A DNA stretch of 64,000 nt, taken from assembly GCF_003334385.1 (NCBI RefSeq), contig NZ_QOWN01000004.1; one strand, 5' to 3'. Numbering within the stretch: the first letter of the stretch is position 1; every line of letters begins with the position of its first letter. Both the position numbers and the translations under genes were made by a program. Of this stretch, positions 47,255 to 48,990 are shown in pieces. The stretch is from Escherichia coli. GTDB taxonomy: Bacteria; Pseudomonadota; Gammaproteobacteria; Enterobacterales; Enterobacteriaceae. The notes under the pieces were generated by a model, which searched no databases, was not told where the DNA came from, and saw only the letters and a list, made by a program, of their open reading frames with translations.

Positions 47255-48055
47255 TGAAACCCGGCTTACTGGATCAAAATTTACCATTGCGAAAGCTTGT
47301 TCTGGAAAAGCTGGAGATGAAATGGTCTCCAGAGCAAATATCAGGATGGTTAAGGCGAACAAAACCACGTCACAAAACGCTGCGAATATCACCTGAGACA
47401 ATTTATAAAACGCTGTACTTTCGTAGCCGTGAAGCGCTACACCACCTGAATATACAGCATCTGCGACGGTCGCATAGCCTTCGCCATGGCAGGCGTCATA
47501 CCCGCAAAGGCGAAAGAGGTACGATTAACATAGTGAACGGAACACCAATTCACGAACGTTCCCGAAATATCGATAACAGACGCTCTCTGGGGCATTGGGA
47601 GGGCGATTTAGTCTCAGGTACAAAAAACTCTCATATAGCCACACTTGTAGACCGAAAATCACCTTATACGATCATCTTTAGACTCAGGGGCAAAGATTCT
47701 GTCTCAGTAAATCAGGCTCTTACCGACAAATTCCTGAGTTTACCGTCAGAACTCAGAAAATCACTGACATGGGACAGAGGAATGGAACTGGCCAGACATC
47801 TAGAATTTACTGTCAGCACCGGCGTTAAAGTTTACTTCTGCGATCCTCAGAGTCCTTGGCTGCGGGGAACAAATGAGAACACAAATGGGCTAATTCGGCA
47901 GTACTTTCCTAAAAAGACATGTCTTGCCCAATATACTCAACATGAACTAGATCTGGTTGCTGCTCAGCTAAACAACAGACCGAGAAAGACACTGAAGTTC
48001 AAAACACCGAAAGAGATAATTGAAAGGGGTGTTGCATTGACAGATTGAATCTACA
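47255..48055 (+). mobile_element. IS30 fragment, 5'-truncated (transposase C-terminal ~264 aa plus right terminal inverted repeat)
   Basis: ORF 47254-48048 matches the IS30 transposase from ...LLDQNLPLRKLVLEKLEMKWSPEQISGWL... to the C-terminus, including the DDE region; the element ends with ...TTGAATCTACA at ~48055; the N-terminal HTH part and left end are absent. Confidence 0.85.
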
Positions 48056-48990
48056 ACCGCGCTCTTGATGTCAGACTCCCTGAACAGTTCTCGATAATCG
48101 GGAAACTCAGAGCGCATTATCCTGTGGTCACACTCTGCCATGTGTTCGGGGTTCATCGCAGCAGCTACAGATACTGGAAAAACCGTCCTGAAAAACCAGA
48201 CGGCAGACGGGCTGTATTACGCAGTCAGGTACTTGAGCTACATGGCATCAGCCACGGTTCGGCCGGAGCAAGAAGCATCGCCACAATGGCAACCCGGAGA
48301 GGCTACCAGATGGGACGCTGGCTTGCTGGCAGGCTCATGAAAGAGCTGGGGCTGGTCAGCTGTCAGCAGCCGACTCACCGGTATAAACGTGGTGGTCATG
48401 AACATGTTGCTATCCCTAACTACCTTGAAAGGCAGTTCGCCGTGACCGAGCCAAATCAGGTGTGGTGCGGTGATGTGACCTATATCTGGACGGGTAAGCG
48501 CTGGGCGTACCTCGCCGTTGTTCTCGACCTGTTCGCAAGAAAACCAGTGGGCTGGGCCATGTCGTTCTCGCCGGACAGCAGGCTCACCATGAAAGCGCTG
48601 GAAATGGCATGGGAAACCCGTGGTAAGCCCGGCGGGGTGATGTTCCACAGCGATCAGGGCAGTCATTATACGAGCAGGCAGTTCCGGCAGTTATTGTGGC
48701 GATACCAGATCAGACAGAGTATGAGCCGGCGCGGAAACTGCTGGGATAACAGCCCAATGGAACGCTTCTTCAGGAGTCTGAAGAACGAATGGATGCCGGT
48801 GGTGGGTTACGTAAGCTTCAGCGAGGCAGCTCACGCCATAACGGACTATATCGTTGGATATTACAGCGCACTAAGACCGCACGAATATAACGGTGGGTTA
48901 CCCCCAAACGAATCGGAAAATCGATACTGGAAAAACTCTAACTCGGTGGCCAGTTTTTGTTGACCACTTCAGATGTTTCCTGAGCAAGCC
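48056..48990 (+). mobile_element. IS3-family element remnant: orfB (DDE transposase) only, abutting the IS30 end
   Basis: ORF 48124-48963 has the rve integrase-core fold (WCGDVTYIW...[10 protein letters not shown]...[12 protein letters not shown]...); the orfB frame stays open upstream to the IS30 junction and no orfA is present. Confidence 0.7.

Follow-up and report, generated by a model that had tools for sequence, protein, structure and literature searches.

Remnants of an IS30-in-IS911 nest beside the Dpd cluster of an Escherichia coli leuX island, probably truncated by a single deletion

The patch of DNA to the right of the Dpd cluster in the 64,000-nucleotide stretch of Escherichia coli DNA analyzed here (the window) is decayed insertion sequence (IS) debris, neither a part of the defense system nor an active element. 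We consider it very probable that this debris is inert wreckage in the variable part of the leuX island: an IS30 nested in an IS911, with the front of both lost by a 912-bp deletion. By sequence the remnants belong to IS30 and IS911, but as elements they fail, neither having its two ends or a complete transposase. Nests of this type are already known from the K-12 annotation and from published work, and the debris is ordinary in kind. On its own it matters little; the mild lead that it offers is the repeated presence of IS30 at one IS911 dinucleotide. It also provides a clear illustration of how a single microhomology deletion can inactivate two nested insertion sequences together, a strain marker (the deletion junction, common to 32 complete E. 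coli genomes), and a boundary for the Dpd cluster: beyond queD there is only a zinc-ribbon ORF, and then debris.

Setting of the debris in the leuX island

The DNA around the debris is E. coli chromosome: a 2-kb query spanning the debris found perfect matches in at least eight complete E. coli genomes, and window positions 29280-64000 are collinear with NZ_CP027355 at 99.97% identity. To the left of the debris come leuX and then int, dpdC/A/B, dpdE-K, dpdD, and queD; to the right lie the gene for a phosphorothioated (PT)-DNA restriction endonuclease and then that for a sigma-54 regulator (Table 1). Between queD and the endonuclease gene the order is zinc-ribbon ORF, yagK/yfjJ-like remnant of 34 codons, IS30 remnant, IS911 remnant. 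In NZ_CP027355, whose locus is identical, PGAP gives the 34-codon ORF (corresponding to 47151-47255) the name 'YagK/YfjJ domain-containing protein'; it had no NCBIfam or PADLOC match of its own. In strain D2 the same gene remnant has 87 codons and reaches the tip of the left inverted repeat (IRL) of IS911. On the other side, the stop codon of the PT-DNA endonuclease gene is 25 bp from the tip of the IS911 right inverted repeat (IRR).

Several other features of the window deserve mention in their own right. The ORF between queD and the debris (46591-47043, minus strand) is a cysteine-rich 'putative zinc ribbon protein' of 129-150 aa, depending on the start chosen; it had no match in NCBIfam or PADLOC and adjoins queD in every Dpd-island carrier examined. 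Between the integrase gene and dpdA, an ORF at 24476-25432 (plus strand) that PGAP calls a 'hypothetical protein' is DpdC (PADLOC PDLC02818, 2.8e-142). From the PGAP start at 24581 the protein covers profile positions 37-318 of 319, and since an upstream GTG at 24476 yields a 318-aa product, near the profile length, translation probably begins about 35 codons ahead of the annotated start. A second debris patch lies about 8 kb downstream, at approximately 56675-59561, its features being located by collinearity with NZ_CP027355. Near the end of the window, 111 bp at 63593-63703 are 81% identical to the final ~110 bp of IS911, another IS3-family end scrap, and are closely followed by an IS2 copy that the end of the window cuts off (63842-64000, again by collinearity with NZ_CP027355). 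At the opposite end, NZ_CP027355 has an IS1A splitting a DUF898-family gene, and the window is without this IS1A at about 10964-10972. Positions 699-10972 are only 97.6% identical to NZ_CP027355, compared with 99.2-99.97% for the rest, and this lower identity points to a history of the backbone left of about 11 kb that differs from the island's.

Table 1. Positions of the debris, its junctions, and neighboring features in the window
Feature	Position	Strand	Details
tRNA-Leu(CAA), leuX	22525-22609		Followed by an integrase and the Dpd cluster
yagK/yfjJ-like (inovirus Gp2-type) gene, C-terminal remnant	47151-47263	-	Left flank of debris
Chimeric 264-codon ORF	47254-48048	+	Flank ATG and 3 codons fused to IS30 transposase residues 124-383
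GCTTA deletion junction	47264-47268		5 bp perfect microhomology within a 10/12 match (AAACCCGGCTTA vs AAACCGTGCTTA)
IS30 remnant	47269-48055	+	nt 435-1221 of 1221-bp IS30; nt 430-1221 if GCTTA at 47264-47268 is counted
IS30 right inverted repeat (IRR)	48030-48055	+	TGTTGCATTGACAGATTGAATCTACA; 26 bp; sole IS30 end remaining
AC, right copy of 2-bp target duplication from IS30 insertion	48056-48057		IS911 nt 334-335
IS911 remnant (IS3 family)	48056-48971	+	IS911 nt 334-1249; orfB frame and IRR
IS911 right inverted repeat (IRR)	48936-48971	+	36 bp, imperfect; sole IS911 end remaining
Phosphorothioated-DNA-binding restriction endonuclease gene	48997-49833	-	NCBIfam NF045808, 3e-124; right flank
IS21-family fragment	56675-56995		Second debris patch; by NZ_CP027355 collinearity
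Group II intron reverse transcriptase, split RT-domain and maturase-domain ORFs	57904-58338, 58356-59162		By NZ_CP027355 collinearity
IS110-family fragment with internal stop	59238-59561		Second debris patch; by NZ_CP027355 collinearity

Two elements without their left ends

An earlier, sequence-only reading of this DNA had described a 5'-truncated IS30, its homology starting abruptly at LLDQNLPL and ending at about 48055, followed from the next base by the open frame of an IS3-family orfB lacking orfA, and each part of this description is borne out. The IS30 remnant is 787-792 bp long, the GCTTA at its left edge being common to both parents of the deletion and unambiguous IS30 beginning at 47269. 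It belongs to its family by NCBIfam (transpos_IS30, 6.6e-72, 242 bits against a cutoff of 80). In blastn, nt 423-1221 of K-12 IS30A align with 47257-48055 at 99.1% identity; over nt 430-1221, 787 of 792 bases are identical (5 mismatches), and 2 mismatches separate the remnant from the complete IS30 at the same locus in strain D2. The IRR is kept, with its tip at exactly 48055, and is the reverse complement of the IRL in D2 and K-12; the IRL is absent from the entire window, as are the promoter region and codons 1-123 of this copy. Within full-length InsI, Pfam places HTH_38 at residues 58-98, a weak second HTH_38 at 6-41, and rve at 229-320, and the incomplete transposase has lost both HTH regions and retained the rve/DDE core. 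In the chimeric ORF, the codons M-K-P-G come from the flank, and IS30 protein homology runs from L124/L125. PGAP marks the IS30 remnant at the identical locus as pseudo, missing its N-terminus. Neither the window nor the near-identical NZ_CP027355, where an IS30-containing probe matches in one place only, showed an active IS30.

The IS3-family element is an IS911. Positions 48058-48971 are identical at 914 of 914 bases to nt 336-1249 of the intact IS911 of strain EC28, a copy that PGAP annotates as an IS911-family transposase with programmed frameshift, and the orfB frame is open across 48058-48963. The family assignment is that of NCBIfam transpos_IS3 (8.7e-94, profile positions 88-368 of 369, 315 bits against a cutoff of 160), and PGAP names the identical locus 'IS3-like element IS911 family transposase', pseudo, missing its N-terminus. 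This remnant lacks the IRL, promoter, orfA, and A6G frameshift site, and so does not encode a complete OrfAB transposase; orfA and AAAAAAG are located in the deleted 335 bp, as read in D2. The IRL and IRR of an intact IS911 copy, 36 bp and imperfect, match at 24 of 36 positions with the tip TGAAGTGG (5'-TG...CA-3') conserved. Here the IRR end reads ...TTGACCACTTCA followed by GATG, and the IRL has been deleted, with no copy in the window. IS911 generates a short target-site duplication of 3-4 bp. This duplication is absent: the ancestral left flank reads ...CCCAG up to the IRL and the right flank GATGT from the IRR (CAG vs GAT). With identities of 99-100% over 0.8-0.9 kb, chance is of no concern for either match.

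Searching the whole 64-kb window by blastn gave no other IS30 piece and no IS911 left part elsewhere, and no complete IS30 or IS3-family element with both its ends. An inversion in place of a deletion was rejected on this ground, neither the IS30 5' part nor the IS911 left part being present in displaced form. The interval 47255-48990 first proposed for the debris is off by no more than about 10 bp at its left end and 19 bp at its right end; its start is that of the chimeric ORF, whose ATG is at 47254, and IS911 ends at 48971.

An undeleted allele in strain D2 and the 912-bp deletion

Strain D2 (NZ_CP010137, locus L002) carries the same locus with 912 extra bases. Its left flank is 100% identical to that of the window for 2269 bp, and its right flank 99.8% identical for 4745 bp. 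D2 holds, in order, the yagK-like remnant, the left 335 bp of IS911 (IRL and orfA to just beyond AAAAAAG), a complete 1221-bp IS30 in the same orientation as IS911 and with AC on each side, the right part of IS911, and the same right flank. Insertion of IS30 gives 2-bp duplications (PMC9333248), and AC flanks the complete copies in both D2 and the K-12 nest IS911A::IS30A, which read GGCTAC, IS30, AC...; the window keeps the right copy only. Removing IS30 and one AC from D2 leaves a 1249-bp IS911 that aligns in one piece, at 99.8% identity, to many intact copies (annotated with programmed frameshift), which shows that IS30 is nested in IS911 and that 48055/48056 is the original insertion joint. 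This right-hand IS30-into-IS911 joint is intact and is not a deletion scar.

Aligned with L002, the window matches positions 1-6169, and the match resumes at 7069. The pentamer GCTTA occurs in L002 at 6165-6169 and at 7077-7081, so that 912 bp (7077-6165) have been deleted. The first copy belongs to the yagK-like remnant and is separated from the IS911 IRL by 143 bp; the second is nt 430-434 of IS30. One deletion removed 143 bp of flank, the left 335 bp of IS911, and nt 1-429 of IS30. Both truncations thus come from one event and not from two separate ones. Perfect microhomology of 5 bp or more at random breakpoints has a probability of P = 0.0046. Judged by the junction sequence alone, in which five perfect bases are a short match, the deletion most likely arose by microhomology-mediated illegitimate recombination or replication slippage, a mechanism other than transposition being favored because neither endpoint is at an inverted repeat tip.

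Transposase could in principle have produced such truncations as an adjacent deletion, through intramolecular transposition of IS30 or IS911 or through IS-excision-enhancer activity. Both elements make deletions via intramolecular transposition (PMC9333248), and the left flank of strain 10, described below, changes exactly at the IS911 IRL tip, which implies that transposase-type or IS-homology rearrangements have occurred at this locus at some time. We nevertheless reject this origin as very unlikely for the present deletion, since IS30 transpositional deletions begin at the inverted repeat edge and endpoints distant from the inverted repeats are non-transpositional (PMC9333248); neither breakpoint here is at such a tip, and the two share the GCTTA microhomology. 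That the window holds two independent fragments, a truncated IS30 and an orfA-less IS911 side by side without a nested ancestor, is what the window alone would suggest, both elements lacking their 5' parts, but is extremely improbable given that the joint at 48055/48056 is the IS30-IRR/IS911 joint of the complete D2 and K-12 nests, AC included, and that a single 912-bp gap relative to D2 explains both losses.

The truncated nest most probably arose in three steps. First, IS911 would have come between the yagK/yfjJ-like remnant and the 3' end of the PT-DNA endonuclease gene. In this step, the weakest of the three, a rearrangement probably accompanied or followed the arrival of IS911, because the flanks are noncontiguous, unrelated genes without a target duplication. 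Second, IS30 inserted in the same orientation at IS911 nt 334-335, a few bases past the A6G site, duplicating AC and splitting the IS911 transposase gene, an outcome shown by the D2 allele. Third, a single 912-bp deletion between the GCTTA pentamers removed the left ends, the promoters, and the DNA-binding coding parts. The repeated insertion and deletion that the sequence-only reading had supposed beside the Dpd cluster is recorded at this locus.

Distribution among complete E. coli genomes

We surveyed 5426 complete E. coli genomes for the flanks and junctions. The right flank (the 3' end of the PT-DNA endonuclease gene) is present in 161 genomes and is joined to the IS911 IRR in 159 of them. 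The deletion junction, detected with a 161-bp probe, occurs in 32/5426 genomes, all 100% identical, and the undeleted yagK-remnant/IRL junction in 12; the IS911-left/IS30-IRL joint, counted over chromosomes and plasmids, is found in 1042/5426. The 143-bp yagK-like segment is likewise restricted to 12 genomes, in 12/12 of which it is already joined to the IS911 IRL, and five of the 12 undeleted genomes derive from a single isolate. A locus without IS911 was found in no genome of the collection. Carriers of the deletion belong to several serotypes and include O145:H28 and O104:H21 strains; an assembly artefact was rejected, the same junction being 100% identical in 32 independent complete genomes. 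Some carriers have later insertions inside the remnants: a group II intron in GN06667, an IS66-family element in GE3, and two IS3-family elements together with one IS66-family element in 14EC047.

In GN06667 (NZ_CP147587), where the group II intron is located in the IS911 remnant, the left junction is at 4426616 and the endonuclease flank at 4214570 on the opposite strand, about 212 kb apart, pointing to a large inversion, one end of which would lie within or close to the debris. Strain 10 (NZ_CP048330, locus L003) was compared over L003 1472-5244 with window positions 24000-47250. To the left of its nest it has a HamA/helicase pair and an IS1 scrap and no Dpd cluster, the pair consisting of a HamA C-terminal-domain protein and a DEAD/DEAH helicase (Hachiman-type); homology to the Dpd-type island starts exactly at the IS911 IRL tip. 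An IS100 splits the gene for the PT-DNA endonuclease in this strain.

Residual function

The sequence-only reading held that neither element could be autonomous, and each is indeed without one end and without a complete transposase. Neither remnant can transpose on its own, and because a single inverted repeat is left per remnant, neither can be mobilized in trans as a normal two-ended element. What remains is one IRR per element and two promoterless ORFs encoding the catalytic core only. A scan for sigma-70-like promoters over 46900-49100 found none (about 2.2 were expected by chance), an Rfam scan of 45500-50500 found nothing, and no Shine-Dalgarno-like sequence is visible ahead of the ATG at 47254. 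The debris most likely does nothing actively at present. Passive roles are possible: the remnants could offer homology for recombination with other IS911 and IS30 copies or serve as a neutral landing pad, a use seen in the deletion-carrying strains with further insertions, and the surviving IS30 IRR could be a target for active IS30.

Truncated proteins may formally be expressed, both ORFs being open, and the remnant could then have been domesticated, with the chimeric ORF or an orfB-only product modulating transposition, for example as a dominant-negative subunit. The open frames, the in-frame ATG that the chimeric ORF has gained from the flank, and the presence of the allele in 32 genomes of several serotypes are what might be expected of such a regulator. 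Against it stand the absence of a sigma-70-like promoter and of a Shine-Dalgarno-like sequence in the scans above, and the two changes private to the IS30 remnant, R256P and Q322L, the latter a few residues ahead of the NENTNG motif: both are non-synonymous and would count toward relaxed constraint. The same ORFs are split by further insertions in other carriers at no apparent cost, and near-identity among carriers reflects recency and not selection. We give a regulatory role very little credence, and prefer to regard the debris as inert.

Comparison with known nests

The closest counterpart among the K-12 nests compared here is IS911A::IS30A of CP4-6 (insN / insI1; NC_000913 270206-272190), in which IS30 lies at the same AC dinucleotide and in the same orientation as here, after a 335-bp IS911 left part as in the ancestral D2 allele. 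The two have decayed on different sides: in K-12 IS30 is complete and the right part of IS911 is cut to 429 bp, whereas the nest in the window has lost its left side and keeps the right part of IS911 whole, up to the IRR. Their flanking genes also differ. The IS911 hosts are only 90-93% identical (33/335 and 30/429 mismatches), in contrast to the IS30 copies, which are ~99.4-99.8% identical; K-12 IS30A and the D2 IS30 differ at 3 of 1221 bases. The K-12 nest is annotated in MG1655 and is mentioned in the literature (PMC9333248). A second one, IS911B::IS30D of KpLE2 (insO / insI3), is also in a leuX island, with nan and fec genes as cargo where the island in the window has Dpd. Here too IS30 follows GGCTAC, after an IS911 left part of 334 bp in which the A-run is one A shorter, but IS30D, which is complete, has the opposite orientation and the IS911 right part starts further in. 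KpLE2 also holds further IS debris, an IS600 fragment.

IS30 hot spots are described as palindromic. Around the AC target in IS911 local symmetry reaches only 6/12, roughly the top 6% of IS911 positions, and the frameshift region of IS911 may still be such a hot spot, because IS911 hosts that share only 90-93% identity carry IS30 at one and the same point, and in either orientation. The insertion points are at 48056-48057 in the window, 6646-6647 and 7869-7870 in L002, 4540-4541 and 5763-5764 in K-12 locus L004, and ~13459 in K-12 locus L005. If the hot spot is real, IS30 would repeatedly and independently inactivate IS911. A broader proposal, that the IS911 frameshift window (AAAAAAGGCT-AC-CGCGC) is a sequence-specific IS30 hot spot and that the dead nest is in addition a fixed right-hand anchor for the swapping of defense systems in the leuX island, is speculative, and we think it rather unlikely that both parts hold jointly; the anchor is suggested by the Dpd cluster to the left of the nest here and the Hachiman-type pair in the same place in strain 10. 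Finally, truncated remnants of this kind have a K-12 precedent in IS30B, which is 5'-truncated and retains only an IRR, having kept the last 184 bp of the element where the remnant in the window is longer, and which in experiments was still hit by IR-targeted IS30 insertion (PMC9333248).
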